Shown piece by piece: positions 11,909 to 54,705 of a DNA stretch of 64,000 nucleotides (positions are counted from its first letter, which is position 1; every line of letters starts with the position of its first letter). A model generated the notes under the pieces. The model was not told the DNA's origin and searched no databases. It was given only the letters and a program-made list of their open reading frames with translations. Source of the stretch: an uncultured Phycisphaerales bacterium (GTDB lineage Bacteria; Planctomycetota; Phycisphaerae; Tepidisphaerales; Tepidisphaeraceae); assembly GCA_963758525.1 (NCBI GenBank), contig CAVWVQ010000003.1, forward strand, positions 4,352,001 to 4,416,000, read 5' to 3'. Made by a program: the position numbers and the translations under genes.

Positions 11909-12083
11909 GTGAGGGTTCAGGGTTCTGGGGTCAGGGTTCAGGGGTAGACTCGCCAGGGTCAGCACAGGGTTCAGATCAGTATGATAGTTTCTTGAGCCGT
12001 TCGCGCTCTCTGCGGCGCTGATATCCGCGCTCCACCGGAACCCTGAACTCCTTAACCCTGAACCCTGAACCCTGAACCCTGAC
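11909..12083. repeat. (GGGTTCA)n/(TGAACCC)n inverted heptamer-repeat hairpin
   Basis: GGGTTCA-like units at 11909-11972 and TGAACCC units at 12038-12083. Confidence 0.9.
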
Positions 12084-12175
12084 GCCTCACAAGGGTTTTT
12101 CCCCTTCCATCGAAGCTTGACGCGTCTATGATGCGGTGAAAGCTCGAATGCTTGCCAACTCCAGCGGGAGCCGTG

Positions 12176-12622
12176 ATGTCTCTGAAACTCGCGACCGAAC
12201 AACCCTTCGGAAAGCTTGCCCGTCAGGCGAACAAGTTGATGGACCAGCTGCAGAAAGGGTACTACAACTTCTATCCCGGCGAGGCATGGACGCCAAACGT
12301 CAATCTCTACGAGACGGAGAATTCGTATCTCGTCTGCGTCGACCTGTCGGGTGTGGACAAAAACAAAATTGACCTCGAAATCCACAACAACCGGCTGAAG
12401 ATCAAGGGGTCCAGGCCGGTGCCGATACAGGAGTCCGCCTCCGGTGCCGAGGCGGGGCGTGAAGCGGAAACTCCTCGAAAGATGCGTGTCCATCTGATGG
12501 AGATTGATCACGGCGCGTTCGCTCGCGAGGTGGAGCTGCCCGAAGGGTCCTCGCACCAGCAGATCACCGCGGTCTACCGCAACGGATTACTGTGGGTCGA
12601 GATTCCAAAAATGTCCGCGTAA
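12176..12622 (+). CDS. Hsp20/alpha-crystallin small heat-shock protein
   Basis: WTPNVNLYET, VDLSGV, EIDHGAFAREVELP and YRNGLLWVEIPK motifs; upstream of lon. Confidence 0.93.
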   Translation: MSLKLATEQPFGKLARQANKLMDQLQKGYYNFYPGEAWTPNVNLYETENSYLVCVDLSGVDKNKIDLEIHNNRLKIKGSRPVPIQESASGAEAGREAETPRKMRVHLMEIDHGAFAREVELPEGSSHQQITAVYRNGLLWVEIPKMSA

Positions 12623-12702
12623 TATTTGGTGATGATGCCCGCCACGCGGGGGCGCCAGGGTCCCTGGACCACTGAACACGCCAACAACCCAGAAAACATT
12701 CC

Positions 12703-15120
12703 ATGGCCGAATCTCAGATCATCGAAAGAACCGAAACCGCCACCACGATCCGCACGGGGGGCAACGGCCAGCGCACGGTCCTTCCCAACGTCCTGCCGAT
12801 TCTTCCGATTCGCAATATTGTCGTCTTTCCCGGCACCGTGATGCCGCTCAACGTCGGCCGGCCCAAGAGCAAGGCGCTGCTGGACGAAGTGATGCCGGGG
12901 GAGAAAATCATCGGCGTCTGCACCCAGAAAAATGCCGATGTCGAAGACCCGCAATACACCGACTTGCACACCGTTGGCGTCGCGTGCGTGATCCTCAAGC
13001 TTTTCAAGCTCCCTGACGGAAACCAATCGATCATCGTGCATGGCTTGGCGCGATTTCGTCTTTTGTCGCTGGAGCAGACCGAGCCTTTCGCGACCGGGCG
13101 GATCGAAGTGCTGGAAGACACGCTCACCCCCGGCCCGTCGCTGGACGCGCTGGTCGCATCCGTGCGGCAGCAGGCCAATCGCGTCATCGAGCTTTCGCCC
13201 AATACGCCCGACGAGGCGCAGCAGGTGTTGAACAGCATCACCAATCCGTCGGCGCTGGCCGATTTCCTGGCGGCTAATCTCCAGGCCGACACAATCGACA
13301 AGCAGCAGATGCTCGAAGAGCTCGACGTGGAAAAGCGCCTGCGGATGATCGCTTCAAAGTTGGCCACCCAGCTCGACGTCCTGGAATTGCAGAGCAAGAT
13401 TCAGTCACAGGTCAAGGAAAACATCGACAAGTCGCAGCGGCGCTATTACCTGCAGGAGCAGTTGAAGGCGATCCGCAAGGAACTGGGCGAGACCGAAGCC
13501 GGCGGGGGTGGAAGCGAAGTCGATCTGCTCCGCACCAAACTCGAAGCGGCCAAGCCTCCCGAAATCGTCATGAAGGAGGCGTTGCGCGAGCTCAACCGCC
13601 TGGAGAGCATCCCCAGCGCTTCCCCGGAATATGGCGTCATTCGCACTTACCTGCAGATTCTCAGCGAACTGCCATGGAGCGTTGAGACAACCGACAAGAT
13701 CGATCTGCCCGAAGCGCGGGCGGTTCTTGATCGCGATCATCACGACCTGGACAAGGTCAAACGCCGGATCATTGAGTACCTGGCGGTTCGCAAGCTCAAG
13801 CCGGAAGGCGGCGGAGCGATTCTCTGCTTCGTCGGTCCGCCCGGCGTCGGGAAAACATCGTTGGGGAAGAGCATCGCCGAGGCGATGGGCCGCAAGTTCA
13901 TCCGCGTAGCCCTCGGAGGGGTGCGCGACGAGGCCGACATTCGCGGCCATCGCCGGACATACATCGGTTCGATGCCCGGGCGCATCATTGCCGAGCTTCG
14001 CAAAGCCGGCACGCGCAATCCGGTGATGATGCTCGACGAGATCGACAAGCTCGGCGCCGACTTCCGCGGCGACCCCGCGTCGGCACTGCTCGAGGTGCTC
14101 GATCCGGCTCAGAACCACACGTTTACCGACCATTACCTCGACGTGCCCTTCGATCTGTCGAAAGTGATGTTCATCGCGACCGCCAACACGATGGACACGG
14201 TGCCCGGCCCGCTGCGCGACCGCATGGAAGTGATCGAGATTCCCGGGTACACCGAATCCGACAAGCTCAACATCGCCCGCCGCTATCTTGTTCCCCGCCA
14301 GCTCGAAGCCAACGGGGTGGCGCCCAAGCAGGTGAAGTTCATTGACGCGGCACTCCGATGGATCATCGAGGGTTACACCCGCGAAGCGGGGGTGCGGAAT
14401 CTCGAGCGGAATATCGGCGCGGTCTGTCGCGCTATCGCAGCCGACATCGTGGGCGGCAAAACCGAGAAGGTTACCGTCGATCGTGACATGGTCAGCAAAG
14501 TGCTCGGGCCGCGCCGATTCGAGCCGGAACTGGCGTCGCGCACCAGCGTTCCCGGCGTGGCCACGGGTCTCGCCTACACCCCCGTCGGCGGAGAGATACT
14601 CTTCATCGAAGCCACGCGGTTCCCCGGTAAAGGGAATATTACGCTCACCGGCCAGATCGGCGATGTCATGAAGGAATCGGCAACGGCGGCGTTCAGCCTG
14701 ATGCGCTCGTGCGCCGAGTCGCTGGGCATTAACGCCAAGCTGCTTGCCGAGAGTGATATTCACATTCACATTCCTGCCGGCGCCATTCCCAAGGACGGCC
14801 CCAGCGCCGGCGTCGCCATGTTCACCGCGCTGGCGTCGCTGCTGATGAATCGCCCGGTGCGCCACGACGTTGCCATGACCGGAGAAATCACCCTGCGCGG
14901 CCTCGTGCTTCCGATCGGTGGGCTCAAAGAAAAAACCCTGGCCGCCAAGCGCGCTGGCATCAAGCAGGTCATCGTTCCCAAGCGAAATGAGAAAGACCTG
15001 CCGGACATCCCCGATGAAGTGAAGGCGAGCCTGAAGTTCAATTTCGTCGAAACAGTCGACGACGTACTGGCAATCGCGCTGGGCGCTGGCCGTAAGGTGA
15101 AGGCGCCTGCGAAAAGTTGA
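12703..15120 (+). CDS. lon: ATP-dependent Lon protease
   Basis: LON N-domain, GPPGVGKTS, GHRRTYIG, LDEIDK, PKDGPSAG (catalytic Ser) and IGGLKEK motifs. Confidence 0.99.
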   Translation: MAESQIIERTETATTIRTGGNGQRTVLPNVLPILPIRNIVVFPGTVMPLNVGRPKSKALLDEVMPGEKIIGVCTQKNADVEDPQYTDLHTVGVACVILKLFKLPDGNQSIIVHGLARFRLLSLEQTEPFATGRIEVLEDTLTPGPSLDALVASVRQQANRVIELSPNTPDEAQQVLNSITNPSALADFLAANLQADTIDKQQMLEELDVEKRLRMIASKLATQLDVLELQSKIQSQVKENIDKSQRRYYLQEQLKAIRKELGETEAGGGGSEVDLLRTKLEAAKPPEIVMKEALRELNRLESIPSASPEYGVIRTYLQILSELPWSVETTDKIDLPEARAVLDRDHHDLDKVKRRIIEYLAVRKLKPEGGGAILCFVGPPGVGKTSLGKSIAEAMGRKFIRVALGGVRDEADIRGHRRTYIGSMPGRIIAELRKAGTRNPVMMLDEIDKLGADFRGDPASALLEVLDPAQNHTFTDHYLDVPFDLSKVMFIATANTMDTVPGPLRDRMEVIEIPGYTESDKLNIARRYLVPRQLEANGVAPKQVKFIDAALRWIIEGYTREAGVRNLERNIGAVCRAIAADIVGGKTEKVTVDRDMVSKVLGPRRFEPELASRTSVPGVATGLAYTPVGGEILFIEATRFPGKGNITLTGQIGDVMKESATAAFSLMRSCAESLGINAKLLAESDIHIHIPAGAIPKDGPSAGVAMFTALASLLMNRPVRHDVAMTGEITLRGLVLPIGGLKEKTLAAKRAGIKQVIVPKRNEKDLPDIPDEVKASLKFNFVETVDDVLAIALGAGRKVKAPAKS

Positions 15121-15130
15121 GGATTTCGCG

Positions 15131-17202: not shown

Positions 17203-17293
17203 AACTACCTCCCGTACCCCAATACACCATTATCTTTCGCCAACATGAGGGATCAAGGCGTGTTCCAGTAAACGCGCATCAGGAAATTACTGA

Positions 17294-18990: not shown

Positions 18991-19169
18991 AAACGGCGAG
19001 CATGCTCGCCGGCTACACGAAGAGATGCGCAGATGCGAAAAAACCCGGAATCCGGTCCCGTCGTTCCTCTTTTCCCCGTGTAGCCGGTGGGCATGCCCAC
19101 CGGTTTCCCCCTTCCGACCTGTCGTCTCCGCCCCTGAAAATTCACGGCGAGCATGCCTGTCGGCTACAC
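18991..19169. repeat. Three GTAG-type REP palindromes upstream of RAYT
   Basis: GTGTAGCCGGTGGGCATGCCCACCGG-like units at 18991-19018 (-), 19078-19104 (+) and 19144-19169 (-, degenerate). Confidence 0.9.
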
Positions 19170-19179
19170 TGAAGAGAGA

Positions 19180-19776
19180 ATGGTCCGCTGGTATCACGCG
19201 ATCTTCAGCGCTTACGGATTCTGGCTTCCGAACGATCCGCGGGGGTCGTGGTCGGACTTTGTGGGGTCGTGGGAGCTGTTGAAATTTGGGTGCGCAACCA
19301 CGACGGGCGAGAAGCGGTCGCTCGCGGCGGTAGCGCATGACGCGGATGTGCGCCGGAGGGCGAAATTAGCGCTGAAATATCCGCCGGTGCGGTTCAACGA
19401 CGCCCAGCGTCTCGCGATCGGAGCAGGCATCACCCAGGCCTGCGCCGAATCGAAGATCATTCTTCACGCCTGTGCGATTGGCTTCGATCACGTTCACATC
19501 GTCGCCGCCCGACATACGAAACGCGTGGAGCAGATCGTCGGACAATTGAAGGGCCGATCCACGCAGCACATGGGGGCGGCTGGATGTCATCCGATGCAGG
19601 CGGCGCTCCCGTCGACACGACCGCTGCCTACACCGTGGTCCGAGGGGTGCTGGTCCGTCTTTATCAATGACCACGAGCAACTCAGATGTGCGATCAAATA
19701 CGTCGAGCGCCATCCGCAAAAGGAAGGCCTCCCAGCGCAACGATGGACCTTCGTCCGTTCCGTCTCCTACGTGTAG
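19180..19776 (+). CDS. REP-associated tyrosine transposase (RAYT, HUH/Y1 IS200-like superfamily)
   Basis: YHAIFSAYGFWLPNDPRGS N-terminus, HUH motif DHVHIV, W..G.W segment and catalytic Tyr in IKYVERHP; flanked by REPs on both sides. Confidence 0.88.
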   Translation: MVRWYHAIFSAYGFWLPNDPRGSWSDFVGSWELLKFGCATTTGEKRSLAAVAHDADVRRRAKLALKYPPVRFNDAQRLAIGAGITQACAESKIILHACAIGFDHVHIVAARHTKRVEQIVGQLKGRSTQHMGAAGCHPMQAALPSTRPLPTPWSEGCWSVFINDHEQLRCAIKYVERHPQKEGLPAQRWTFVRSVSYV

Positions 19777-19911: not shown

Positions 19912-19945
19912 GGTCCTTCGCGTTGAAAATCTTTTCACCGCCGTA

Positions 19946-19994: not shown

Positions 19995-20975
19995 ATGAGC
20001 CATGCGATTTGTTTCCTGTCACGACGGCAAGCTTCAGGTGTTAAGTCCGCAGGAGTTCCGCGCCCGACCGCCCAGGCTTTCACCACCGGCTTGGCACCGC
20101 TGGACGCACTGGCGCCAGGAGGGGCGTTTGCCCGGGGAGCGGTGCATGAAATTCTCACCGCCCCCGAGCATGGCGCCGCCCTTTTTTTTGCGACGCTCCT
20201 GGCCGGAGCGTCGGCAGCGCCGCCGGGAGGCACGGGGGATGGGGAAGGCACGAAGGCAGTCGCCGCGGCGACTAAACTGCGGCACCAAGGCACAGGGGGA
20301 AGGATGGAGGAGGGATTCAGAGAGGGTTCAGGGTTCAGGGTTCAGACTTCAGCACAAAAATCCCCTTCCTCCCCTTCGTGCCGCAGTTTAGTCGCCGCGG
20401 CGACTGCCTCTGTGCCTTCGTGCCTTCCCCCTGATCCCCCTTCGTGCCTTGGTGCCTCCGTGCCTTCGTGCCGGCGATTCATCTGCTGGTGCGATCCCAC
20501 GCGGGAAATTTATCCGCCGGCGTTGGCGAGTCATGGCATCGCATTGACGCATTTATTTCTTCTGCATCCGAACGGCCCGCGCGATCTGCTCTGGGCGATT
20601 TCTGAATCTTTGCGATGCAAGGGGGTCGCCGCCGTCGTGGCCGCTCCGCCACGTCTCTCGCGCGTCATGGCGCGCCGTCTTCAGCTTTCCGCCGAGCGCG
20701 GCGGCGGCGTCGGATTGCTGCTGCGCAGCACCAACGCGCCGGGAATTGATTGCTATGCCGCCGCCACCCGCTGGCTGGTGCGCCCCCAGGCTGGGGAGCG
20801 CACCGTGCAACGATGGAACGTTCAACTGATTCACGGTCATGGAGGATGTATCGGACAGACCGTCATCCTGGAGGTAAGCCGTGAAAACCATTCTGTGCGT
20901 GCACTTGAATCGCTGGCCAATCGACCGATGGAGAAGAGCACAGGACAAACTTCGGGCGTTGCCAAGGCCTCGTGA
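19995..20975 (+). CDS. imuA: ImuA (RecA/SulA-like) with in-frame repeat insertion
   Basis: TGLAPLDAL.PGG.F.RGAVHEI, WCDP..EIYPPAL, ESLRC, RRLQLSAERGG and AATRWLV motifs; upstream of imuB and dnaE2. Confidence 0.9.
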   Translation: MSHAICFLSRRQASGVKSAGVPRPTAQAFTTGLAPLDALAPGGAFARGAVHEILTAPEHGAALFFATLLAGASAAPPGGTGDGEGTKAVAAATKLRHQGTGGRMEEGFREGSGFRVQTSAQKSPSSPSCRSLVAAATASVPSCLPPDPPSCLGASVPSCRRFICWCDPTREIYPPALASHGIALTHLFLLHPNGPRDLLWAISESLRCKGVAAVVAAPPRLSRVMARRLQLSAERGGGVGLLLRSTNAPGIDCYAAATRWLVRPQAGERTVQRWNVQLIHGHGGCIGQTVILEVSRENHSVRALESLANRPMEKSTGQTSGVAKAS

Positions 20976-22873
20976 TTGCCAAGCCGTTCCTCCTCAAAAA
21001 CAAATTCAAAACTTCCGGAACGCCACCCCCTCTCCCGGTACTCCGGGAGAGGGCAGGGGTGAGGGTGATTTCGAGCACCAACGGCACTTGACGTTCCAAA
21101 TCACCCTCACCCCAACCCTCTCCCGGAGTACCAGGAGAGGGGACAATCAAGCAGCCTCTCTCCTCAATACACATTCTTCCCAAGTTCCCCTGGTCATCGT
21201 TCGCACCGTCGCCGATCGGCAGGTGATTGTTTCTCTGTGCGACCTGGCCGCCCAGCGGGGAATTCGCCGGGGGATGACGCTCACGCAGGCCCGGGCGCTG
21301 TGCGCCGATGTCGAGCATGCCGAACACGACCCGCCGGCTGACCGTCGGGCGCTGGAGGCGCTGGGTCGCTGGCTCACGCGTTTTACGCCGACTGTGGCGC
21401 TGGACGCCAGTGAATCCGCCGACGGCATTTTCCTCGACATCACCGGCTGCGACCGGCTGTTTGGAAGCGTTGAAAATATTGTCCATCAGGTGATCGACGC
21501 CTTGGCTCGCCTGCGCATCAGCGCCCGCGTCGCAGTTGCTCCCACGCCTGGGGCGGCCTGGGCCTTGGCTGTCGCGGGGGAAAACGGCGATATCGCGTCC
21601 ATCGACACGCTGGCGGATATGCTTGCGCCGCTTCCTCCTGCCGCATTGCGCATCAGCGACGATCTTGCCGCGGCATTGCATCACCTGGGGCTGGTCCGCA
21701 TCCATCAGGTGATCGACCTTCCCCGCGGCCTGCTCCCGGTACGTTTCGGTCCCGAATTGCTTTTGCGCATTGATCAGGCACTGGGCCGAATCTCCGAGCC
21801 GCTGGTTCCGCTCCAATATCTTCCCCCCATCATTGCGCGTATGGATTTTGACGGCCGAGTCTCTTCGCTCGAAGCCATCTGGGCAGTCTTTCAGCAATTG
21901 ATCGGGCAGATCATCGCGCAGCTGACGCATCGCGGCTGCGGCGCTCGCCGGCTCGATATCGAGTTGCTCCATCTCCACGAGCCACCGGTCCGCAAAAGCA
22001 TTTTTCTCTCCCGTCCCTCGCGCGATGCGGTGAATTTGTTTAATTTATTTCGGTGTGGGATGGAGGAGGGGAGGGAAGGGACAAAGGGACAGAGGGACAA
22101 AGGGACAAAGGGAAGACAAGAAGGCACGAAGGCAGTCGTGGCGACTGCCTCCGTGCCTTCGTGCCTCTCTTCCCCTCCCCCTTTGTCCCTTTCCCCTTCC
22201 CTCTCCGACGACGGTTACAGCGGCATGATCCTCCATGTCCCCTTATTTGAGCCAATTTCCGATCAGCAACTCGGCCTTCTCGGCCAGGAAGAATATGACG
22301 GGCAACTCGAGCTCGATCGTCTCATCGAACGGCTGCGGATTCGCCTGGGAGAACAGACCGTCATGAGCACCCAATTAACCGAATCCTACATCCCCGAGCG
22401 CGCCTGGAGCGCCTGCGCGAGAAAGCAGGGCAGTAAAGCAGTTGAAAGGAAAGAAGAATTCCCACTCTAAAGCATCCCCTTCCTCCCCTTCGTGCCGCAG
22501 TTTAGTCGCCGCGGCGACTGCCTTCGTGCCTTGGTGCCTTCCCCCTGATTCCCCTTCGTCCCTTGGTCCCTTTGTCCCTTTGTCCCTTCCTCCTCCCATC
22601 CGTCCCCTTCACTTATTCCTTCATCCCATCGAAATCCGCGTGATGGTCAGCCCGTCGGATGATGCCGAAGGGCAGCCCGCCGCGTTTACGCATGAGGGGC
22701 AGGTCCGCACGATCGTTCACGCCGTCGGCCCCGAGCGTATTGCCGGGCGGTGGTGGGACGGCCACGACAAAACCCGCGATTACTTCGACGTGGAGGACGC
22801 CAGTGCCAGAAGGTTCTGGCTCTTCCGCGTGCGGGAAACCGGGCGGTGGTATTTGCATGGAGGGTTTGAGTGA
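20881..22873 (+). CDS. imuB: ImuB (Y-family polymerase-like) with three repeat insertions; apparent frameshift near 22410
   Basis: WPIDR, GMTLTQARAL, RFTPTV, LDITGCDRLFG and APTPGAAWALA; C-terminal GPERIAGRWW, RDYFDVED and WYLHGGFE lie in ORF 22442..22873. Confidence 0.9.
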
Positions 22874-22874: not shown

Positions 22875-23155
22875 GAAGCCCGGGGAGAAGTCAGGAGCAA
22901 GAAGCCAGAAGTAAGAAGCAGGAATTGCAAATTGAGGATTGCAAATTGCAAAATTGAAGGGCGGCAATTTGAGATTTGAGATATTTGAGATTTGAAATAT
23001 TTGAGTCCTGGTGACCCAAAGGAGTAAGAACCATAAGGAGACAAAAAAGCCCCGTCCCCCAAAATTTGCATTTTGCAATCCTCAATTTGCATTTTGCAAT
23101 TCCCTCTTCTGACTCCTGGCTTCTGGCTCCTGGCTTCTGACTCCCTACTTCTCCA
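22875..23155. repeat. Compound inverted-repeat hairpin between imuB and dnaE2
   Basis: AGAAGCC-like and TTGCAAA-like heptamers on the left are mirrored by TTTGCAA/GGCTTCT units on the right; GAGATTT units lie in the loop. Confidence 0.9.
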
Positions 23156-23159: not shown

Positions 23160-26100
23160 ATGCCCGAAGCTCCCAACCCCAAACTTCGCGAAGCTCCGCC
23201 GCCAGCATTGAAATCGGTGGCTCCCTCCTCCTGCGCCTATGCGGAGCTGGACGTCAAAACCAACTTCTCTTTTCTCCGCGGCGCTTCGCATGCCGACGAA
23301 CTGGTCTATCGTGCCGCGGAGCTGGGATATCGCGCGATCGGCATCACCGACATCAACTCTCTCGCCGGTGTCGTTCGTGCCCATGACGCGGCCAAGGAAG
23401 TCGGCCTGAAGCTTCTCGTCGGCTCCCGCCTCACGTTTTCCGACGCTCCCGACCTGCTCGTCTGGGCCAGCAATCGCGCGGGATACGCCAGGCTTTGCAG
23501 AATGCTAACCCTGGGAAAACGCCGGACCGAAAAAGGAGAATGCGATTTAAGGCTGGAGGATTTTTTGAATGATAATGAGGGGTTGGTGGCGGCCGTGGAG
23601 GGGGATCAAAGAGAGGCACGAAGGGAAGGAAGGAAGCAGGAGTCAGGAGCCAGAAGCCAGAAGTCAGAAGAGGAAACCGAAGATTGCAAATTGAGGATTG
23701 CAAATTGCAAATTGCAAATTGAAGAACACCTCCTCTCCCCTTCCTCCCCCTTCGTGCCGCAGCAAGGTCCCGCGCGCGCGGGATGCCTTCGTGCCTCCGT
23801 GCCTGCATTAATTTCCCTCCGCTCCTCCCTCGGCTCGCGTCTCTCGCTGATTGCCGCCTGCTCTTATGGCTCGGACGATTCCTCACATCTGCGCCGGTTG
23901 GCGGAGCTGTCGCGCCAATGCCATATTCCTCTTCTGGCGACCAATGCGGTTCACTATCACGACCCGTCCCGCCGGCGGCTGCAGGACGTGCTCACGTGCG
24001 TTCGCCATGGCTGCACCATCGACGAAGCGGGCTTTCGTCTGTTTCCAAACGGCGAACGCTATCTCAAATCGCCGCTGCAGATGCATCGGCTCTTTGCCGA
24101 CTATCCGCAGGCGCTGCGGCGGGGGATCGAGATTGCCGAGCAATGCGACTTTCAACTCGATTCGCTACGCTATGAATATCCCGACGAACTGGTTCCGGCC
24201 GGGAAATCTCCCATCGAACATCTGGGCAATCTCGCCTGGGCCGGGGCGGCTGAGCACTATCCAGCCGGCATTCCTCAAAAAGTGCGCGATCTGCTCAACC
24301 ACGAGCTGACGCTGATCGCACAACTCAAATTCGAAGCCTATTTTCTCACCGTCCATGATCTGGTGTGCTACGCGCGATCGCGCGGCATCCTCTGTCAGGG
24401 GCGCGGATCGGCCGCCAATTCCGCGGTCTGTTTCTGCATCGGGGTCACGTCGGTCAACCCTGTCGAAGTCGATTTGCTTTTCGAGCGGTTTATCAGTGCC
24501 GCCCGCAATGAGCCGCCGGACATTGACATCGATTTCGAACACGAGCGCCGCGAGGAGGTGATTCAATACATCTACGAAAAGTATGGCCGCGAGCGCGCCG
24601 GGATGACCGCCGAGGTAATCACCTATCGCGGTCGCTCCGCGGTCCGCGACGTGGGCAAAGCGATGGGCCTCACGCTTGACATGGTCGACACGATGGCCTC
24701 GAAGCTCGACTGGTGGCATCGCGGCGTGCTGAGCGAGCCGCAACTGCAGGAGTGCGGCCTGGACCCCGCGGATCGGACGATTCGTCGAGTCATTGCGCTT
24801 GCCACCGAGTTGCTGGGTTTTCCCCGCCACTTGAGCCAGCACGTCGGAGGGATGGTGATGACGCGCGGACCGTTGTGCGAACTGGTGCCGATTGAAAATG
24901 CGAGCATGCCGGATCGAACTGTCATTGAGTGGGATAAGAATGACATTGACTCGCTGGGGATTTTGAAAGTTGATGTGCTGGCGTTGGGAATGCTGACGTG
25001 TATTTCGAAGGCGCTTAAGTTGATCAGTTGGACAAATGTCAGAGACGAAGGGACAAAGGGACAAAGGGACGAAGGGGCGGAGGGGGGAAGGGACGAAGGG
25101 ACAGAGGGACGAAGGGACAAAGGGGCGGAGGGGGGAAGGGACGAAGGGACAGAGGGACGAAGAGACAAAGGGGAATGTGGGGAGGGGGATAAAGAGGCGA
25201 TATCTGATGCACAAAGTCAATACGTTTCGGGATCTGGTTGCTTGGCAACGAGGGATGGAACTGGCGCAAACGACGTATTCAGTGATCCTGAGGATGCCAC
25301 AAGCGGAGAGGTTTCGTCTTTTCAACCAGATGTGGCGGGCCGCGTACTCGATCCCGTCCAACATCGCGGAGGGATACGCCCGACAATCCCGCCCGGATTA
25401 TTTGAAGTTTCTGCGGATTGCTCGCGGTTCACTGGCAGAGCTGTCTACTCAAGTCGAATTAGCAATCAATCTTCGAATTATTACTCCGTGTGCACAACTG
25501 CAGAACCTGGAGAATCTGCTGATGGAGGAGGATCGAATTCTACAGGCGCTGATTATGAGCCTCCAACGCAAAACGCGACAGGAAGAGCAAATGAGGGGAG
25601 GGGCAAAGGGACAAAGGGACTAAGGGACGGAGGGACAGAGGGTAAGGCAAATCCCTCCGCCCCTTTGTCCCTGTGTCCCTCTGTCCCTTCGTCCCTCCCT
25701 TCCTCTGCCCCTTCGTCCCTTCTCCCTCCCTTGTCCCTCTCCTCCTTCCGTCCCACCGATCCCGCTGTCTACCAAATGATGTCGAATGCCGACACGGTCG
25801 GCGTTTTCCAGATTGAGAGCCGGGCGCAGATGTCCATGCTGCCGCGGCTGCGACCCAACTGCTTTTACGATCTCGTGATCGAAGTCGCGATCGTGCGCCC
25901 AGGCCCAATTCAGGGAAACATGGTTCACCCCTATTTGCGACGCCGTTGCGGCGAAGAAAAAGTCACATTCCCCAATGAAAAACTGCGCGAAGTGTTGAGC
26001 AAAACCCTCGGGGTTCCGCTTTTTCAGGAACAGGCGATGCGCATTGCAATGGTCGCGGCGGGTTTTACCGCCGACGAGGCGGACAAGTTGCCGCGCCATG

Positions 26101-27468
26101 GCAGCATGGCGTCGGACCAGCGCGCTGGAGGCATTTCATCAGAAAATCGTCCAAGGCATGCTTGCCAATGGGTACGAACAGGAATTCGCCGAACAGTGTT
26201 TCGATCAGATCAAGGGGTTCGGCGAATATGGATTTCCCGAGAGTCACGCCGCGTCGTTTGCGCTGCTGGTGTATGTCTCAGCCTGGATCAAACGTTACCA
26301 TCCCGCGGCCTTCGCGGCGGCGCTGATCAACAGCCAGCCGATGGGTTTTTATATGCCTGCACAAATCGTGCGCGATGCCAAAGAGCATGGGGTGGAAGTG
26401 CTTCCCGTGGATGTGAACCGGAGCCAATGGGATTGCACATTGGAGGGGGGAAGGGACGAAGGGACAGAGGGACATAGGGACGAAGGGACGAAGGGACAAA
26501 GGGACAAAGAGGTAGAGGGACAAAGGGACGAAGGGACAGAGGGACATAGGGACAAATGTGCAGAGGGAACAGATGGAGGGATGAAAGGACAAAGTGCGAA
26601 GATGACATGGGGGGCCGGGGGACCAGTATTGCGATTGGGGTTCCGTCTCATCAAGGGATTTCGCGAAACGCATGCACAACAGATTGCCGAAGCCCGTGCA
26701 AAATGGAAATGTTTTATTTCCATCGCGCAATTGCATCGGACGACGCGGCTGCCTGTCGCATCGTTGCGCATTCTTGCTGAAGCCGATGCGTTTGGATCAT
26801 TGGGAATCACCCGCCGTGAGGCGTTGTGGGAGGTGCTGGAGTTGAAGGATGAGGAGGCAGGGTTGTTTGAAGGGGGGGAGGGAGAAGGGACAAAGGGACA
26901 GAGGGACAAAGGGACAAAGTGCAAAGACGCCATTCCCGCTGCCCCTTTGTCCCTTCGTCCCTTCGTCCCTTCGTCCCTTCTCCCTCCCCTGCCCGCTGCC
27001 CCTTTGTCCCTTTGTCCCTCAGTCCCTTCGTCCCTTCTCCCTCCCATGCCCCTCGGCCAGGAAGTCATGACCGATTACGCGACGGCCGGCCTTTCGCTCA
27101 AGCAACATCCTGTTGCGCTGTTGCGCGATGAACTGCAGCGCAGAAAGATCATTCGTTCCATAGACCTGGATCCGTTACGCAATGGGCGATGGGTTAGCGT
27201 CGCGGGATTGGTGCTGATCCGGCAGCGGCCTGGGACGGCATCAGGCATCGTCTTCGAAACCCTTGAAGACGAAACCGGCATCGTGAATCTGATTGTGAAG
27301 CCGGATATTTACGAGCGCTACCGCCGCGCCGCCCGGCATGCGGGACTGCTCCAGGCCGAGGGATATCTGCAGAAACAGGGACAGGTCGTTCACGTGGTCG
27401 CCAAACGGCTCTTCGACTTGAGCGATTTGCTGCAAGGCCACGAATTTCAGTCGCGGGATTTTCATTAG
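23160..27468 (+). CDS. dnaE2: Error-prone DNA polymerase DnaE2 (ImuC) with four insertions; apparent 2-nt frameshift near 26091
   Basis: TNFSFLRGASH PHP domain, QGRGSAANS, PPDIDIDFEHERREE, PRHLSQHVGG, KVDVLALGML, GVFQIESRAQ, YGFPESHAASFA, RQRPGTA and C-terminal SRDFH. Confidence 0.95.
25207..25623 (+). CDS. Four-helix-bundle protein (23S rRNA IVS protein/TIGR02436-like), nested in dnaE2 in the +1 frame
   Basis: FRDLVAWQRGMEL, ERFRLFNQMWRAAYSIPSNIAEGYARQS and YLKFLRIARGSLAELSTQ match the family signature; SD-like AAAGAGG at 25191-25197. Confidence 0.92.
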   Translation: MHKVNTFRDLVAWQRGMELAQTTYSVILRMPQAERFRLFNQMWRAAYSIPSNIAEGYARQSRPDYLKFLRIARGSLAELSTQVELAINLRIITPCAQLQNLENLLMEEDRILQALIMSLQRKTRQEEQMRGGAKGQRD

Positions 27469-27469: not shown

Positions 27470-27680
27470 AGGAGAGAAACGTGAAGACGTGAAGACGTGA
27501 AACGTGAAACGTGAAACGTGAAACGTGAAACGTGAAGACGTGACAATGCGAATCCGCCCTCTCACGTTTCACGTCTTCACGTTTCAGGTCCCGTTCCACG
27601 TTCCAATCACCGGCACTGACCGCCCTCTCACGTCTTCACGTCTTCACCCCTCCCGTCACGTTCCACGTTCCAATCACCAG
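27470..27680. repeat. (ACGTGAA/ACGTGAAG)n inverted-repeat hairpin after dnaE2
   Basis: About nine ACGTGA units at 27479-27543 are followed by TTCACGT units; the right arm is duplicated. Confidence 0.9.
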
Positions 27681-30557: not shown

Positions 30558-30619
30558 TGAAGCTCCGGGTTCAGGTTTAAGAACTCATCGTTGGGACGTC
30601 CGCTAATTTTTCCTTTTTC

Positions 30620-30702
30620 GGTTGCCATTTTTCATTTGTCATTGGTTTTCCGCCAGACCAGAGAATGAAAAATCTAAAATCTAAAATGAAAAATGAAAAA
30701 GT
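30620..30702. repeat. AT-rich heptamer (AATGAAA/AATCTAA) inverted repeats
   Basis: TTTTTCATTTGTCATT at 30627-30642 versus AATGAAAAATCTAAAATCTAAAATGAAAAATGAAAAA at 30664-30700. Confidence 0.7.
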
Positions 30703-30743
30703 GAACAACATGTTTCGAGCCCGCAAATTCCGCGGTCTGCGAC

Positions 30744-40392: not shown

Positions 40393-40485
40393 AGGGTTCA
40401 GGGTTTAGGGTTCAGGGTTCAGGGTTCAGGGTTCAGGGTGTCAGGGTTCAGGGTGTCAGGGTTCAGGGGTGTCAGGAGTCAGGAT
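40393..40485 (+). repeat. (GGGTTCA/GGGTGTCA)n tandem array, essentially single-armed
   Basis: About eleven GGG-containing 7-8 nt units directly after the cysE stop. Confidence 0.9.
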
Positions 40486-47847: not shown

Positions 47848-47884
47848 TCACTGCCTCCATGTCGGGCAAGACTATAACCGGAAA

Positions 47885-48045
47885 TGGAGGGGAGGGAAGA
47901 TCTGGGGAGGGCACGAAGGCACGGAGGCACGAAGGCACGAAGGGGGGAGGGACGAAGCGCGAAGTTGAGGGAGAGGACAGGGGACGAAGTGGGGGAGGGA
48001 CAAAGCGCGAAGTGGAGGGAGGATACGGGGAACGAAGTGGGGATC
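47885..48045 (+). repeat. Purine-rich GGCACGAA/GGGACGAA repeat arm
   Basis: GGCACGAAGGCACGGAGGCACGAAGGCACGAAG followed by duplicated GGGAC(G/A)AAGCGCGAAGT(T/G)GAGGGAG units. Confidence 0.8.
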
Positions 48046-48169
48046 GATGGAACTTGCCAACATCGCCGGAAGTGGCTTGCCCTTCGCGGAAGACTCAAAG
48101 TCTTCGCAGGGACAGTGGAACCTGATCTGCGAGACACGGCGCCAGGGTCTGCCGCCTCGCTTCGCGCAG

Positions 48170-49045: not shown

Positions 49046-49244
49046 CAGGTCATTGCTCGTTTTCGATTGTTGCTCTCCGGTCCTGGATCTGCATTCCTCT
49101 CCCGCAAAAATCTACCCCTGCTGAGACCTGCCGTTGGATTATCACGGAATTATATCTCGCAAATTCTTGCTGGCAAGCGATTGAAACACGCCACAAGTTG
49201 GAAGGGTCGGAAGGGGTCTTGACACTTTTCGCGGGGTTGCGCTT

Positions 49245-49377
49245 TCCCCCTCCCCTGGTACTCCGGGGGACGGTTGGGGTGGGGGCGGTATCGTCCGCGA
49301 GTGCTCTGTCGCGTCGCCCAAGCCTTTCCCCATCTGGCCCCGACTATAGCCCTACCCCGGTGTACCAAGGGAGGGGA
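49245..49377. repeat. CCCTCTCCC-type palindromic repeat (degenerate)
   Basis: TCCCCCTCCCCTGGTACTCCGGGG...CCCCGGTGTACCAAGGGAGGGGA; related to 21027-21142 in imuB. Confidence 0.75.
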
Positions 49378-49425
49378 CAGGCCCGCCGGAAGCCTCACGC
49401 ACTCAGATCGACCAGGTCGCCTCTG

Positions 49426-52390
49426 CTATTTCGCCGCTCCGCCGGTGTCATGCTGAATACCCCGGGGTGTCAGCTCGACTGGTGGAAACGCCGTATAAAC
49501 GCGCGGGCCCTTGCGAACTTCAACCGACTCCGGCGTCGGCGTACTGATCGTCACGATGCACGAATTCAGCCGTTGCCGCGCGATCTGCTGCACATCCGCA
49601 AGCGTGACGCCCTTGATTCGATCGGCAAACTGAGCGTGAAAGTCATAGCCAAGCCCAAATAATTCGTCCAGCGCGGCGCTGGTTGCCTGTTCGGCGGGCG
49701 ATTCGTGGTCCATCGCGTCGGCCAGCGTAATCAGCTCCTTGGAGCGATCGAACCACTTCGGGTTGATATCGGCGGCCGTCCCCTGCTCACGGGCGATATT
49801 CTGCAAACAAGTTTCCACTACTTCATTCACTTTGGACGGCGCGCACCCGGCAAATACGAAGAAACTGCCGGGAAGACTGGTGGTGCGGCCAGGAGAATTC
49901 ACTGCTTCCACAACATACACCAGGCCCCGGCCGCGAAGCGTTTCAAAGAGGTAGCCGGTCGGAAATGTGTATCCGCCGGCAATCGTTTGGGCTACTGTCA
50001 GCGGGTACATCTCAGGCGAGCCGATCACGGCATTCGAGTGAAAACCGATGACAATCCCCGCCAGTTCCTGATCGGTCTTCTGCACGGCCACCTGCTCGAC
50101 ATTCACGGTCGGAACCGATGGCTGCGTCGTGGCGGGCGGCGCTTCGTGCGCGATGGCGTCAGCAGCCGTCGAAGGCTTGGGGCCTTTGCCTAAAAATTGG
50201 TTCGCGAGCGACCTGGCCTTCTCGAGGTCGACATCTCCGTAAATCGCCAGCACGCGTTTCTGGCCCAGGATTTTCGAATGATACCAGTCGCGCACCATGC
50301 CGGGACTGAAACTGTTCACGTTGTCGGCGCTGCCGAGCGGAACAAACTGATACGGAGAGTCGAGCGGGCCGAAATACTTCTGCTTGAAGAAGCGAATGGC
50401 CTGCGCCGACCAATCGGCGTCTTCGCCGGCGATGCGCGGAAATCCGCCGCTTCATCTGATCGACTTCCTTGGGATCGAACGCCGGGTTATTGACGATATC
50501 GGCGTACACGTCGAGCGTCTTTTCGAGGTCCCCTTTCAGGCATGTCGCGGTCCACGACCACGTATTGTTGCCGCAGGCGGTTTCCATCTCCCCGCCGATG
50601 GAGGAGAAGAATCTTGAGATGTCGTCGGCGCTGCGGGTCGCGGTGCCGCGCGGAAGCGAGAGCATGGTCAGATTGCCCAGCCCGTTGGTCTTCGCGTCTT
50701 CTGCGGTGATTCCGCCCACGGCGTACATCTGCACGACAATCAGCGGCGACGTGGAAATCCGCTTGAGGAGCAGAATCGTTCCGTTGTCGAGCTCGGCGCG
50801 CACGACTTGTGATGCAGGCGACGCAGCCGCCGGCTGGGTCGTTGACGCCCCGGCGGAGCCGATCGGCCGGATCAGATCGACGGCGCGGGGCAGACCCTGC
50901 GCGCCGGCGTATTCCGCCGGCAACATGGCGCTGGTCAGCAGCCTGGTGCGATCGAGATATTTGCCGGCAACACGCTTCACGTCAGCGCCCGTCAACGCAT
51001 CAATTCGCTTTACATACAATTCGCTGAAGTGGGCATCGCCGGTGGTCATGTAATCTTCGGCCAGCGAGGAGGCGATTTCTTCCGTTGTCTGCAGCCGTTT
51101 GACCAGGGCAACGCGGATGTCGGTCTTGGCGCGGGCGAGGGATTCGTCATCCACACCGTTCTTCTTGATCGATTCGAGCATCGCGAGCACCGCGTCGGTG
51201 GCCGGCTGCACTTTTTCCGGATCCAGTTCCATGTCGATGCTGAACGTCCCGGCCGCGTAGGAAGGCGTCTCATCGTCAACGGAGATCGTGTTGACCAGTT
51301 GCTGCTTGTCGCGAATTTCGCGAACCAGCAGGGAGCTTTCGCTTCCGCCGAGCACGTCGGCCAATAAATCCAGCGCGTAGAGATCGGGGTCGTCCATCCG
51401 GACCGACGGGAAGCCCAACTGCAATTTCGCCTGTCCGAGCTTGGGAAACGTGGCGACGACGGTTCGCGGCGACATCACCTGCGGCTCGGCAGCAATATCA
51501 TGCGAAGAGACGCGCCCCGGCTTGGCGTCGGAGACATATTTTCTCACCGACAGCAGCATCTGCTCGGGATCGATGTCGCCGGCAACGGCGAAGAGCATGT
51601 TGTTGGGCTGATACGCGAGCTTGTAATACGAATAGACGTCGTCGCGCGAGAGCCCCTGAATCACCTCCTGATATCCGATGACCGGCACGCGCGCGGGGCT
51701 TACCTTGTAGCGGTTGGTCGCGGAGAGGTAATAAAATTGCCGGTCCGGCTCGCCCTTGCCCATCTCCAGCTCACGCTGCACAACCTGATATTCGCGGCGA
51801 TATTCCGCCGGCGTGATCAAAGCGCCGAGCATCCAGCCGGTGACGAGGTCCACTGCTTCGTCCATGTGCCCGGTGGTCGTATTCACGAAAAACGCGGTAT
51901 GATCCTCGCTGGTGTACGCGTTGGAGTTATTGCCGATGCGTTGCAGCAGATCGCGGTTTTGCGCTTCGGTGCGGCGCTGGTTGCTTCCGCCCGCAACGAG
52001 GTGTTCGAGCAGATGGCTCAGGCCGCCCCCGAGCCATTTCCCTTCATACACGCCGCCGGTGAAGCAGTATCCGCGAACCGAGGCTACCGGGGACGGAACG
52101 CGCTTGGCGATCACGACCATCCCGTTGCGGAGCACGGAGATAATCTCGTCTTTCCGATCGACCACGCGCGAGATTTCCGCGCCGTACCCGGCCATCTGCG
52201 ACTTGTTCTGCAGCAGCTCATTTCCCTGCGCGTCGCCGCCCGCAGGCGGGACGGTCGTGGATGGCTGGGTTGTCGGCGGCGCCTCCGCGGGTGTTGTTGC
52301 CGCGTTGGGCTGCGTCGCCGGCGGGGACGATGTCTGACACGCCAGGTTCAAGAGTCCAAAACCGGTCAAGAGAATCATCCAACACTTCAT
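49426..52390 (-). CDS. M16 (pitrilysin-family) zinc peptidase lipoprotein; apparent frameshift near 50435
   Basis: HLLEH inverted zinc motif, NAYTS, second M16 half and lipobox LNLAC. Confidence 0.92.
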
Positions 52391-52437
52391 GTGGTTTGCT
52401 CCGCTGCCAGCTACGCTGGAAAGATCAGGATTCTGTC

Positions 52438-52929
52438 TTAGAACGCCGCTTCGTCGTCCTGCTCGATTTCATGCAGATAGGTAAGAGCTCGCTCCAACTC
52501 GCCCTTGAGGTGCCGAACGCGCAGCAGGCTCTTGACGCGCGTCAGCAGTTCAAATTTATTGACGGGCTTGCTCACAAAATCGTCGGTTCCATATTCGGTG
52601 GCACGCTCGATGTCGCCCAGCTCGTTGAGCGCGGTGACCATTAAAATCTGAATGTCGCGGGTTTTCGGATCGCTCTTGAGCCGCTTGCAGACCTCAAATC
52701 CGCTCATGTGCGGCATCATGATGTCGAGCAGGATGAGATCGGGCGCCGATTCGCGCACCTGATTGAGCGCTTCAACGCCGTCGGCTGCCGTGACGATCCG
52801 CACGTGCAGCGACTCGAGGAATGCCTGAAGCAACTCCACGTTTTGCGGATTGTCATCAACGATGAGGACGGTAGATTGCGGCAGGGCCGCGTCCGCCGAT
52901 TGCGGGTTTGCGGGTTCAATGTCGGCCAT
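52438..52929 (-). CDS. Single-domain response regulator
   Basis: LIVDD, LLDIMMP, MVTA and FVSKP motifs. Confidence 0.93.
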   Translation of the reverse strand: MADIEPANPQSADAALPQSTVLIVDDNPQNVELLQAFLESLHVRIVTAADGVEALNQVRESAPDLILLDIMMPHMSGFEVCKRLKSDPKTRDIQILMVTALNELGDIERATEYGTDDFVSKPVNKFELLTRVKSLLRVRHLKGELERALTYLHEIEQDDEAAF

Positions 52930-53012
52930 ACGGGCGCTCCGGGTCGATGCGACAGCATTGCCGCGTTGCCCGACGACGGGGACTATACGCGCACCGCGCG
53001 GGCATGTAAACA

Positions 53013-53256
53013 AGGGGTCAGGGCTCAGAGAGGGTTCAGGGTTGAGGGTTGAGGGTTCAGGGTTCAGGGTTCGGCGGATTAGAGTATCGGGGCCAACGTG
53101 TCTAGTGTTTCAGGTCGTTGGGTTAGACTGCCTGTTAGGCACCAACTCTCCAAACCCTGAAACCCCCCTGAACCCTGACACCCTGAACCCTGACACCCTG
53201 AACCCTGACACCCTGAACCCTGAACCCTGAACCCTGAACCCTGACACCCTGAACCC
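53013..53256. repeat. (GGGTTCA)n/(TGAACCC, TGACACCC)n inverted-repeat hairpin
   Basis: Left arm 53013-53072 and right arm 53153-53256, which abuts the glycosyltransferase stop codon. Confidence 0.92.
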
Positions 53257-54335
53257 TACTCCGCCTCCAGACGCAGCAACTTCTTGTACAGCGGCAGCAC
53301 AGTTTCCCACGTGAACTTCCGCATGACGTGATTGCGGCCGATGAGAATGAGCTTCCGTCGGAGCGCGGAATTGTCGGCGACCATCGCGATCAGCTCCGCG
53401 AGCCGGCGCGGCGATCGCACCGGCGCGAGCAGGCCTGTCGTTCCGTGGCGCACGACATCGCGGATTCCCGGAACGTGCGTCGCAACGACCGGAACGCCGG
53501 CGGCCATTGCCTCGATCAGCACCAGCCCGAATCCTTCGGCCTCCGAAGGGAGCACCAATACATCTATCTTCGCCAGCGCCTCCTGCGGCCGCTCCACCGC
53601 GCCGTGAAACGTCACATGATTCTCCAGGTGCTTGCGCGTCACCATCGCATCCAGCCGCTCGCGTTCGCTTCCGGCGCCGAAGAGATGAAGATGCACCGCA
53701 TCACCCAGGAATGCGACGGCGCGAATCAGATCGGGGATGCGCTTGATCGGATCGAGCCGCCCGATGAATCCCACGCGCACCGGCCGCGAGGGCATGGACG
53801 TATCGCGTCCGGCAAGCTCGGCGAATTCGGCCGGGTCGATCGCGTTCGGAATGATAACGAGCTTTTGGGCGGGAATGTGCGATCGTTCCTGCGCCACTTG
53901 CGCCACCGACTGCGACGGCACGATCACCGCCTTTGCCGCGCGATGCACGATCCATTGCAGTCGCCAGTGCCAGCGGGGCTTTGGCTGCGTCGTTTGAATG
54001 GACTGAAGAAATCGAACCCCTCGCATCCGCAGCGATCCCACGGCAGCGACCACATTCGCGTGCAGCAGAAAGCTGACGACGGTGTCGTATGATTCGGCCC
54101 GCAGGAGGGCGACGAACCGATTAAAAACGCCGAGGTCTTTGCTGCCATGGGCGTCGAGCGTCCTGACGGAAATGCCCCGCGCCTCGAGCTGATCCGCCAC
54201 GGGCCCGCGGCCAGCCAGGCACGCCACGTCCACGCGCACTTCCGGGGGATGATGCAGTCTCAGCGCCAATTCGCGAACGACCGTCGGCGTGCCGCCGATT
54301 TCAAGATCCGTGATGAGCAGGAGAATGCGCCTCAC
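53256..54335 (-). CDS. GT4-family glycosyltransferase
   Basis: IGG, IPNAID, FIGRLDPIKR and EGFGLVLIEAMAAG motifs. Confidence 0.93.
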   Translation of the reverse strand: MRRILLLITDLEIGGTPTVVRELALRLHHPPEVRVDVACLAGRGPVADQLEARGISVRTLDAHGSKDLGVFNRFVALLRAESYDTVVSFLLHANVVAAVGSLRMRGVRFLQSIQTTQPKPRWHWRLQWIVHRAAKAVIVPSQSVAQVAQERSHIPAQKLVIIPNAIDPAEFAELAGRDTSMPSRPVRVGFIGRLDPIKRIPDLIRAVAFLGDAVHLHLFGAGSERERLDAMVTRKHLENHVTFHGAVERPQEALAKIDVLVLPSEAEGFGLVLIEAMAAGVPVVATHVPGIRDVVRHGTTGLLAPVRSPRRLAELIAMVADNSALRRKLILIGRNHVMRKFTWETVLPLYKKLLRLEAE

Positions 54336-54396
54336 AGCCGCAGTGTAGACAAAACACCGCGACAGAGCAGCGATGAGATGGAAAATCCGAGGACCA

Positions 54397-54539
54397 GGGT
54401 GTGGCGCTCGAAAGTGGCGATCGGCTCCGAGTAGGGCGGGATTCATCCCGCCGATTTGTTGGCCGGCCGAGAAAACGGCGGGATGAATCCCGCCCTACGA
54501 TCGCAAAATCTGCAATCGCCACAAATAAAAGTTACACCC
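54397..54539. mobile_element. 143-bp MITE, copy 2
   Basis: Near-identical to 7800-7942; flanked by GAGGACCA/GACGACCA (7 of 8 match). Confidence 0.88.
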
Positions 54540-54607
54540 GACGACCAACTCCCATTGCTAAATGGCGCTACGCGATCCTGCCCGGTCCGCGGTGACCGAA
54601 AAATGCA

Positions 54608-54705
54608 GAACACGAATCGACACCAATTTCGCACGAATCTTCACGAAGAAGGTTTCCCCGCATTTATTCGTGAGGATTCGTGCCCATTGGTGCAGATTCG
54701 TGTTC
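54608..54705. repeat. CACGAAT/ATTCGTG inverted-repeat hairpin
   Basis: GAACACGAATC...GCACGAATCTTCACGAA mirrored by TTCGTGAGGATTCGTGC...GATTCGTGTTC. Confidence 0.85.

Follow-up and report, generated by a model that had tools for sequence, protein, structure and literature searches.

Small genes that lie between copies of their own repeat are known from the REPIN/RAYT and Ssn/NTS systems, and genes of the four-helix family PF05635 are known from the intervening sequences (IVS) of 23S rRNA. Here we describe cassettes in which one small gene, of family PF05635 or of family PF13366 (GxxExxY), lies between inverted arms of tandem units of 7-10 nucleotides (nt), together with the dispersed arrays of such units, in a stretch of 64,000 nt from an uncultured Phycisphaerales bacterium (the window; G000:C3:4352001-4416000), in the genome to which it belongs (G000; 6.47 Mb, 61% GC, 91% complete, contamination 6%) and in related genomes. 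REPINs, as presented in PMC8049555, likewise consist of an inverted doublet with a diverse spacer, of singlets and of tandem clusters, and their low-copy gene is flanked by its own repeat and accompanied by more repeats in the genomes that bear it. That gene encodes the transposase RAYT (REP-associated tyrosine transposase, HUH), whereas the genes enclosed here belong to PF05635 or PF13366, the arms are tandem 7-10-mers and many unit-gene pairs occur in one genome. The arm of a REP (repetitive extragenic palindrome) is by definition a GTAG-type palindrome, which is not a feature of the arms here. In the Ssn/NTS (SRM) system as described in PMC11893778, the gene of a small single-domain nuclease lies between its own repeats, and both gene-less repeats and gene-repeat pairs are many, as in the GxxExxY class; the Ssn proteins have a GIY-YIG fold and demonstrated activity, with site-specific cleavage of single-stranded DNA as a defining trait, whereas the cassettes here have tandem-unit arms, encode either a predicted PD-(D/E)XK-like protein or a non-catalytic helical bundle, and are known from sequence and predicted fold. 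The cassettes would work like both systems and are excluded from both by their protein.

The IVS of Coxiella 23S rRNA, according to PMC4990558, carries a PF05635 open reading frame (ORF) within a terminal stem, has heptamers before the start codon and is patchily distributed, all of which resembles the present cassettes. They differ in lying outside rRNA, within protein genes and where genes of an operon meet (that of the window in dnaE2, the others in G000 with protein genes or spacers as their listed flanks), in having hundreds of gene-less copies, and in being read through rather than excised within genes. Convergent pairs of GGGAATC heptamer arrays (70 and 75 cases) have been reported from Xanthomonas (Rehm 2015, PMC4692102), with the G-rich arm after stop codons, the C-rich arm before start codons and strain-level changes in length, as here; that paper deals with one family, read as quadruplex-forming simple sequence repeats, and its main text neither contains the term xcc0516 nor makes the link to four-helix genes. 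Nor did term searches of the main text on the TAACTGA repeats of Beggiatoa (MacGregor 2015, PMC4679880) reveal a link to four-helix or IVS genes. Unlike simple sequence repeats, the elements here are paired, polarised and gene-linked. MITEs (miniature inverted-repeat transposable elements) and derivatives of abortive gap repair are internally deleted copies of DNA transposons that keep both ends. The internally deleted copies of a GxxExxY 10-mer family, with both ends, and the spacers shared among GACGCGAA and among ACACAAAA elements are similar to them, but the parent here has no transposase, and the four-helix-type families have unique spacers with no trace of the gene. Inteins and homing elements in DnaE reside site-specifically in a polymerase gene; the dnaE2 cassette of the window also keeps to one site and is scattered among empty alleles, but its passenger gene lies in another frame and is devoid of splicing and endonuclease domains, and the host protein would carry a junk loop of 160-230 residues. 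No splicing or homing endonuclease family was matched by NCBIfam models in the dnaE2 host frame, which is only 30% conserved. Diversity-generating retroelements (DGRs) share an Avd-like pentameric helical bundle and differ in their adjacent reverse transcriptase, the nearest one here being 63 kb from any cassette. Published work thus far found covers parts of the picture, namely the heptamer pairs of Xanthomonas, the IVS heptamers of Coxiella, the TAACTGA repeats of Beggiatoa, REPIN/RAYT and Ssn/NTS; neither a link of units to these gene lineages nor nesting in dnaE2 was found in the literature searched, which was mostly open-access and whose supplements could list neighbouring genes.

One-gene cassettes and the pairing of gene and unit

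The unit of the arms tracks the lineage of the enclosed protein, and not the host, across 30 related genomes. Among 75 four-helix genes with 59 units (21 of 96 were dropped for a weak period or a short protein, and two units were set by hand), protein identity predicted unit similarity (Mantel r -0.44, p<=0.0005); the share of pairs whose units differed by one mismatch at most was 1% below 30% identity and 55% at 60-70%, and pairs from the same genome were hardly more alike in unit than others (0.449 vs 0.480). The GxxExxY genes gave a similar correlation (r -0.47, n=26). In a quick tree, as was also used for the dnaE2 alleles below, four-helix clades with a common unit were seen for GGGTTCA (4 genomes), GAGATTT (3) and AATGATG-like units (5), and the clade of the window gene carried GGCACGAA/AGCGACGA/GGGACGAA. 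Co-occurrence across genomes, which the initial annotation of the window had proposed to examine, pointed the same way: GGGTTCA arrays (at least 10 matches) were present in 6 of 41 genomes, and the full cognate gene in 4 of these 6 against 0 of the 35 others, one of which had a fragment; the 10-mer pattern and its own gene clade were found together in 7 of 10 genomes against 5 of 31. The 8-mer pattern was less clean, with more than 40 matches in 4 of 7 genomes holding the window clade and in 3 others without it, and 8-mers similar to those of the window clade are also used by GxxExxY genes.

In G000 the cargo families had 8 four-helix matches, 4 GxxExxY matches and 6 DUF559 matches at 5 loci. 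The four-helix genes have arms, read by eye, of AGAAGCC, GGGACAAA, GGGTTCA, TAGTGAA, GAATGAC, TGATTGG/GGAACGT, AAATGGA-like and TAGAGCAG/TTGCA-type units, so that the eight genes have mostly different units, and the GxxExxY genes, also by eye, have CGCGAAGG, GAACGCAGAT, CACGAAT and ACACAAAA. Within the bacterial family, PF05635 was present in 38 and PF13366 in 36 of the 41 genomes, one of which (G004) is unpublished and contributed only a zero row. Inverted arms were found at 63 of 96 scorable four-helix loci and 29 of 33 scorable GxxExxY loci against 2 of 300 host genes, in a sample of 97 of about 155 PF05635 and 33 of about 95 PF13366 matches that favoured the best scores; across phyla they were found at 64 of 78 four-helix loci. 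The unit period was mostly 7 at four-helix loci (63 of 79) and 8-10 at GxxExxY loci. One GxxExxY gene (G000:C3:1855400-1855900) is interrupted by a frame break, and its 3' end is duplicated in tandem together with the arm; at G000:C3:4322171-4322602 a small GIY-YIG ORF and then a four-helix fragment directly follow what appears by eye to be a tmRNA/tRNA 3' end. Host genes between distant arms were judged to be neighbours of two separate elements.

The four-helix protein of the window was modelled as four helices (pLDDT 91) and is 45% identical to XCC0516 (2GSC, five chains). Its fold match to the DGR protein Avd is weaker (4DWL/8UB8, E ~0.02, TM 0.82-0.84 by target), and it matched NF033474 with 26 bits, below the cut-off of 80. 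We know of no catalytic site in the four-helix class. The GxxExxY protein, modelled at pLDDT 95, has invariant residues E34, D63, E73, K75, Q87 and Y91 (E-D-ExK and QxxxY) in 30 of 30 sequences; its nearest folds are Cas4 and lambda-type exonucleases with modest scores (E 3e-4 to 1e-2), a sequence search of the PDB gave no match, and it is predicted to be a nuclease with a PD-(D/E)XK-like fold.

Arrays of period 7, 8 and 10 with a score of at least 40 and at least 3 copies numbered 285, 290 and 37 genome-wide and 0, 0 and 0 in one codon-shuffled copy of the genome. After merging (1018 arrays), the purine-rich ones had an inverted partner downstream in 207 cases, upstream in 18, on both sides in 27 and on neither in 190, and the pyrimidine-rich ones upstream in 207 and downstream in 19, at a threshold with a chance rate of 1.8%; 469 of the 1018 had no partner within 1.5 kb and are lone arms. 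The purine-richer arm came first in 340 of 405 paired elements, the spacer being shorter than 250 nt in 294 of these 340 (median 70), and the family's own first arm led in all 163 simple same-family two-arm clusters recognised by 13 hand-written family patterns. Element ends were close to stop codons (98 of 254 within -10 to +20 nt, control about 12), lone purine arms stood after stops (58:11) and lone pyrimidine arms before starts (18:5), which is also how GGGAATC arms are placed in the Xanthomonas genomes of PMC4692102. The 8 of 275 sites counted inside genes are a lower bound, as the home-made gene caller missed insert-rich genes and out-of-frame inserts were not counted; the inserts within core protein genes (PheS, Mfd, RimO-like, DnaE2) are long in-frame loops. 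A second RimO-like copy without the insert (G000:C3:22095), with a loop closer to other genera, may be a paralogue or stem from the contamination of 6%. Head-to-tail chains of whole empty elements, similar to bacterial interspersed mosaic elements, were seen at G000:C3:573937-575616, 925670-927036, 3463987-3465021 and 4092533-4093823, and AGAAGCC arms stand on both sides of a tRNA-like gene at G000:C1:281390-281574.

All arrays that the initial annotation had named are present where it placed them, and the genome-wide scan that it proposed bore out their number and their polarised pairing (163:0). Its layout of inverted arms throughout holds for the pairs, but at 4180, 9577, 26450, 40393-40485 and 47910 a first arm stands alone, its partner missing from the vicinity; as to its "usually purine arm first", polarity is set per family and is not always that way round, the family at 30606-30705 being pyrimidine-first. 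CACGAAT, given as a 7-8-mer, is a 10-nt box repeat, and the families, said to be unrelated, include the mutually related units GGCACGAA, GGGACAAA and GGGACGAA. Of the three cargo families it named, the arms enclose four-helix and GxxExxY genes; DUF559 lay between tandem arms at 0 of 5 loci and had BoxC-like palindromes instead at 2 of the 5. Arms without cargo and a distribution like that of slippage microsatellites, which it had named as grounds for giving up the idea, were not what we found, as arms do enclose cargo and the inverted pairing is one-sided.

Gene-less copies and the re-use of sites

The dispersed arms are stereotyped copies of the arms of the cognate cassette. Of the 80 arms that have an 8-nt variant unit, 58 have it in the second place counted from the outer end, which is also its place in the cognate cassette; the GAATGAC empties repeat the composite arm of their cassette, such composite arms measuring 60 nt; and left and right arms are heritably different in three families. 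These three features argue against free reiteration of a short template, by which the initial annotation had the arms made. The two arms of an element are no closer to each other than to the arms of other elements, their lengths are uncorrelated, and one arm is about 45 units long. The idea that the arms mirror one another was also considered and rejected, with a slight excess for GGGTTCA only (23 of 1000 permutations) and none in five other families.

The arrays are very probably gene-less offspring of the one-gene cassettes. The clearest case is the GxxExxY gene at G000:C3:2087930, which has about nine relatives elsewhere in the genome that retain the arms together with more or less of either end of the gene; about eight distinct junctions were read by eye, several of them at short shared sequences; two of the copies have a common junction, and the two that were aligned are 87-95% identical to the parent. 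Shared spacers were found in 26 of 32 GACGCGAA empties and 8 of 10 ACACAAAA empties. The arrays had been taken earlier for empty versions of the cassette with the four-helix gene at 25207: that they are empties of cassettes is supported by the deletion series, the shared arms and the co-occurrence of unit and gene, but the cassettes are about a dozen, with two unrelated protein families. Two other origins of the spacer were considered and rejected, namely DNA captured from elsewhere in G000, with no match for most spacers, and pre-existing host sequence, which is ruled out for the element at 11909 and was not seen in the PheS, RimO-like and dnaE2 loops.

Comparison of orthologous sites shows the elements to be net insertions that appear, disappear and take one another's place. 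The paired GGGTTCA element between divergent genes (11909..12083) is missing in three relatives that retain the host flanks; at the hsp20-lon junction G001 and G002 have a GGGTTCA element with unrelated spacers and G000 has none; and one PheS loop holds four different repeat types in G000, G001, G002 and G015 and none in G010 and G003. Two or more families were found in 88 of 526 clusters (expected 31-49), with concentric order in 55 of 61 (shuffle mean 23, maximum 33), and among mixed-family pairs 28 had inward and 0 reversed order; 5 were nested and 0 crossed. Part of this re-use can be put down to loops and junctions being tolerant of inserts; the concentric order calls for more. The proposals that existing sites are re-targeted and that families nest at one site were thereby upheld, the latter by the nest at 22886-23154 with AGAAGCC outside ATTGCAA outside GAGATTT. 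A GACGCGAA element interrupts the right arm of the C3:2087930 cassette without having duplicated more than 1 nt, no target duplication over 1 nt was seen at the single clean nested junction, and among 275 sites ten candidate empty paralogous sites for footprints were found, none of them clean.

The nested gene in dnaE2 and other elements of the window

The cassette of the window (25036..25760, plus strand) consists of a GGGACGAA/GGGACAAA first arm, a four-helix-bundle gene (PF05635/TIGR02436; 25207..25623, plus strand) and a second arm, and forms an in-frame insert of about 225 codons in dnaE2 (23160..27468, plus strand), the gene of an error-prone DNA polymerase; the four-helix gene lies in a frame other than the stop-free host frame. 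The site is 266 amino acids long in G000 and 34-46 in 9 of 16 relatives. The same clade occupies the same dnaE2 site in G015, G045, G042, G057 and G023 (where the contig ends in the right arm) and lies between genes in G008. The closest named relatives of the gene belong to Phycisphaerae metagenome-assembled genomes, and the 18 best are distributed over this dnaE2 site (11), another dnaE2 loop (1), another gene (1) and un-nested positions (5). At L213 the clade was seen in a different dnaE2 loop.

In a tree of 29 dnaE2 alleles (15 nested and 14 gene-free; one duplicate and the rows missed by the pattern, 1 nested and 3 empty, were dropped), nested and gene-free alleles are interspersed with 8 changes, a single clade is rejected (approximately unbiased test, p-AU 7e-6), and cassette identity is uncorrelated with dnaE2 identity (r 0.007). 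On these sequences our reading is that the cassette was probably gained in dnaE2 repeatedly, the alternative of one old gain followed by many losses being still a viable one. The missing correlation may reflect saturation, and 74 of 500 shuffles gave a scatter as low, so that gain is not separated from loss. Conservation in the nested bodies is 59% in the four-helix frame and 30% in the host frame. The host frame has 0 stops in 14 nested bodies, and only 93 of 5000 synonymous recodings of the window gene stay open, so read-through is under selection and splicing is not needed. Over four-helix gene bodies in general, the +2 frame was open in 15 of 93 and the +1 frame in none. Other four-helix cassettes lie inside an open host frame at L068, L089, L221 and L239, and two of these hosts are presumably DNA methylase genes, which they resemble by motif.

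The 10-kb bin with imuA, imuB and dnaE2 holds 22 arrays, more than any other of the 650 bins (1.15 on average and 10 in the runner-up); eight inserts keep the frame, and four dnaE2 loops have received lineage-specific inserts across 16 relatives. The imuA-like gene (19995..20975, plus strand) has one in-frame insert (20220..20472), a GGCACGAA pair around a short palindrome plus a lone GGGTTCA arm. Just upstream of imuA lies an ORF similar to RAYT (19153-19776, weak NF047646 match). The imuB-like gene (20881..22873, plus strand) carries two in-frame inserts, a BoxC/TM-like palindrome doublet (21027..21142) and a GGGACAAA/GGCACGAA composite pair (22065..22200), and is split by a frame change near 22440-22470, where relatives have a single ORF and where lone second arms of the GGCACGAA and GGGACAAA types stand (22475..22600). 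The concentric nest of AGAAGCC, ATTGCAA and GAGATTT fills the interval from the imuB stop to the dnaE2 start (22886..23154). Besides the cassette, dnaE2 has in-frame inserts in its PHP loop (23610..23810, mixed AGAAGCC/ATTGCAA/GGCACGAA), in loop 3 (26443..26570, a lone GGGACAAA first arm) and in loop 4 (26876..27045, a GGGACAAA pair), and right after its stop follows a GAAACGT/TGATTGG element (27476..27678) whose cognate four-helix gene is at G000:C3:86416. The frame break of dnaE2 near 26090 is either real or an assembly error, its position being intact in all 16 relatives aligned; as 5 of 54 loci tested in this assembly are broken (dnaE2 included), the breaks in imuB and dnaE2 may be errors.

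Elsewhere in the window, lone GGCACGAA first arms stand after the polA stop (4178..4240) and, with a palindrome, at 9561..9640; a lone GGCACGAA/GGGACGAA first arm is at 47910..48042, a lone GGGTTCA first arm follows a stop codon (40393..40485), and a short GGCACGAA pair lies in frame within mfd (59229..59296). A pyrimidine-first 7-mer pair, ATTTTTC/AATGAAA, is at 30606..30705. The paired GGGTTCA element at 53013..53257 ends at the stop codon of a minus-strand gene and has its cognate four-helix gene at G000:C3:3097241; the CACGAAT 10-nt-box pair (54608..54705) has arms identical in type to those flanking the GxxExxY gene G000:C3:1855542. The latter pair adjoins a GTAG-type REP doublet (54432-54500), a separate repeat system. 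Another dispersed palindrome, with a GCCGCGGC core, is often joined to GGCACGAA arms (20260-20400, 9600-9640, 22490-22520). The BoxC/TM motif is that of Holder 2015 (PMC4666352), whose main text does not mention DUF559. Similar palindromes are empty in imuB (21027-21142) and flank two DUF559 nuclease-fold genes (G000:C3:1103306, C3:1210856), a third pairing of repeat and gene, and motifs similar to BoxC/TM form in-frame dnaE2 inserts in two relatives.

Origin and spread of the elements

The explanation that we favour, and consider rather probable, is that the arrays are gene-less offspring of cassettes that spread by copying into DNA breaks. The first step would be a cut in a hairpin or next to it, made either by the GxxExxY nuclease itself or, at places where the four-helix pentamer would bind its units, by a recruited nuclease of the host or a helper; in the ensuing repair both ends would be extended inwards, with a cassette or an empty copy as the source. 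Most such events would halt early, and what remains would be a pair of arms around a piece of the gene or unrelated filler, a single arm, or a left and a right arm of different families; old elements would be preferred break sites, giving rise to concentric nests, and slippage would afterwards alter the unit number. Such a route would account for the deletion series, the lone arms, the mixed arms, the nesting and the lack of duplication. By itself it is about an even prospect for the GxxExxY class and a lesser one for the four-helix class.

Several results weigh against this explanation, among them the shuffles and the possible saturation noted for the dnaE2 alleles. The deletion series could equally be decay following the insertion of whole cassettes. 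Spacers are unique and without trace of a gene in 24 of 24 GGGTTCA, 21 of 22 GAATGAC, 9 of 9 ATTGCAA, 13 of 14 AGAAGCC and 44 of 56 GGCACGAA empties, and copying into breaks leaves both the origin of these spacers and the source of the cut in the four-helix class unexplained. No cognate gene for the ATTGCAA or GAGATTT families was found in G000, nor one for GGGTTCA in G021, which has the most such arrays and is 81% complete, or in G051. The correlation of unit and protein is expected from plain linkage and does not show recognition, and kin are not independent. G000 also holds possible trans-acting enzymes, with 38 RAYT matches and 6 reverse transcriptases.

With such enzymes at hand, the empties may have come from cassettes and been moved as single-stranded hairpins by a separate RAYT- or IS200-type transposase, in the manner of REPINs, the cargo genes being passengers; we consider this unlikely. 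REPINs as described in PMC8049555 share with the present elements the inverted arms, the highly diverse spacer, the decaying singlets and the tandem clusters, one of the 38 RAYT-model matches exceeds the cut-off and one is the ORF beside imuA, and the lack of a target duplication at the clean nested junction agrees with such a route. The units, however, follow the tree of the four-helix and GxxExxY proteins, which those of a passenger would do only via linkage; no Y1 enzyme lies between these arms among the wide-gap pairs listed, one such ORF being found between arms of an unrelated unit; and each of the dozens of unrelated units would call for an enzyme specificity of its own.

A route through RNA, in which RNase III excises the long stem as in 23S rRNA IVS and the RNA, bound by an Avd-like pentamer, serves as template for a reverse transcriptase of the host, is in our judgement quite unlikely. 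The four-helix protein does belong to the IVS family, with its identity to pentameric XCC0516 and its structural likeness to Avd; Coxiella IVS, as reported in PMC4990558, combines heptamers before the ORF with RNase III excision; and the elements hug stop codons in a genome with six reverse transcriptase matches. Those matches lie 63 kb or more from any cassette, the in-gene inserts are stop-free in the host frame and hence translated rather than spliced out, and GxxExxY cassettes have the same layout with a nuclease.

Ordinary slippage microsatellites retained as host-useful hairpins at gene ends (terminators, mRNA stability), with the small genes merely among them, are a very unlikely explanation. 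It has been suggested for heptamers, as cited in PMC4692102, and would suit the freely varying unit number, the uncorrelated arm lengths, the arm of about 45 units and the 469 unpaired arrays. Against it stand the polarity of 163:0, the stereotyped variant positions, the correlation of unit and protein across genomes, the mostly different units of eight four-helix genes in one genome, the deletion series and the presence or absence at orthologous sites, by which slippage as the origin is largely refuted; it may still explain retention and change in length. Least probable of all is a telomerase-like activity that extends the two 3' ends at a break by one short templated unit over and over before filler joining, which has an Avd-like partner protein to offer and would need no extra assumption to yield the polarity, the unique spacers, the lone arms and arm lengths that vary independently, but which is at odds with variant units at fixed positions, with long composite arms laid out identically to those of the cassette and heritably different left and right arms, and with gene fragments in GxxExxY-type empties, no reverse transcriptase or template being linked to any cassette.

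We suggest, tentatively, that the cassettes may represent a widespread class of selfish DNA whose tiny proteins each recognise a 7-10-nt unit of their own and, with no transposase involved, bring about the copying of shells with repeat arms. Protein and unit would diversify together into dozens of specificities, several of which coexist in one genome and overwrite each other, and one lineage would home into the gene of the damage-inducible polymerase, dnaE2, where the frames overlap. Many bacteria have an excess of heptamer repeats, noted long ago, for which there is no agreed cause, and the large families PF05635 and PF13366 lack a function; if true, such a class would explain the excess of the repeats and supply a function for both the four-helix family of the IVS and the GxxExxY family. 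The pairing of gene and unit amounts to a table of protein-unit predictions that can be tested in vitro, as for the Ssn nucleases, and the GxxExxY set might be a new source of small nucleases with sequence specificity. Core proteins, moreover, gain long in-frame loops from the elements, and in at least 15 distinct alleles of dnaE2 a conserved gene and the polymerase gene that it overlaps are read in different frames.

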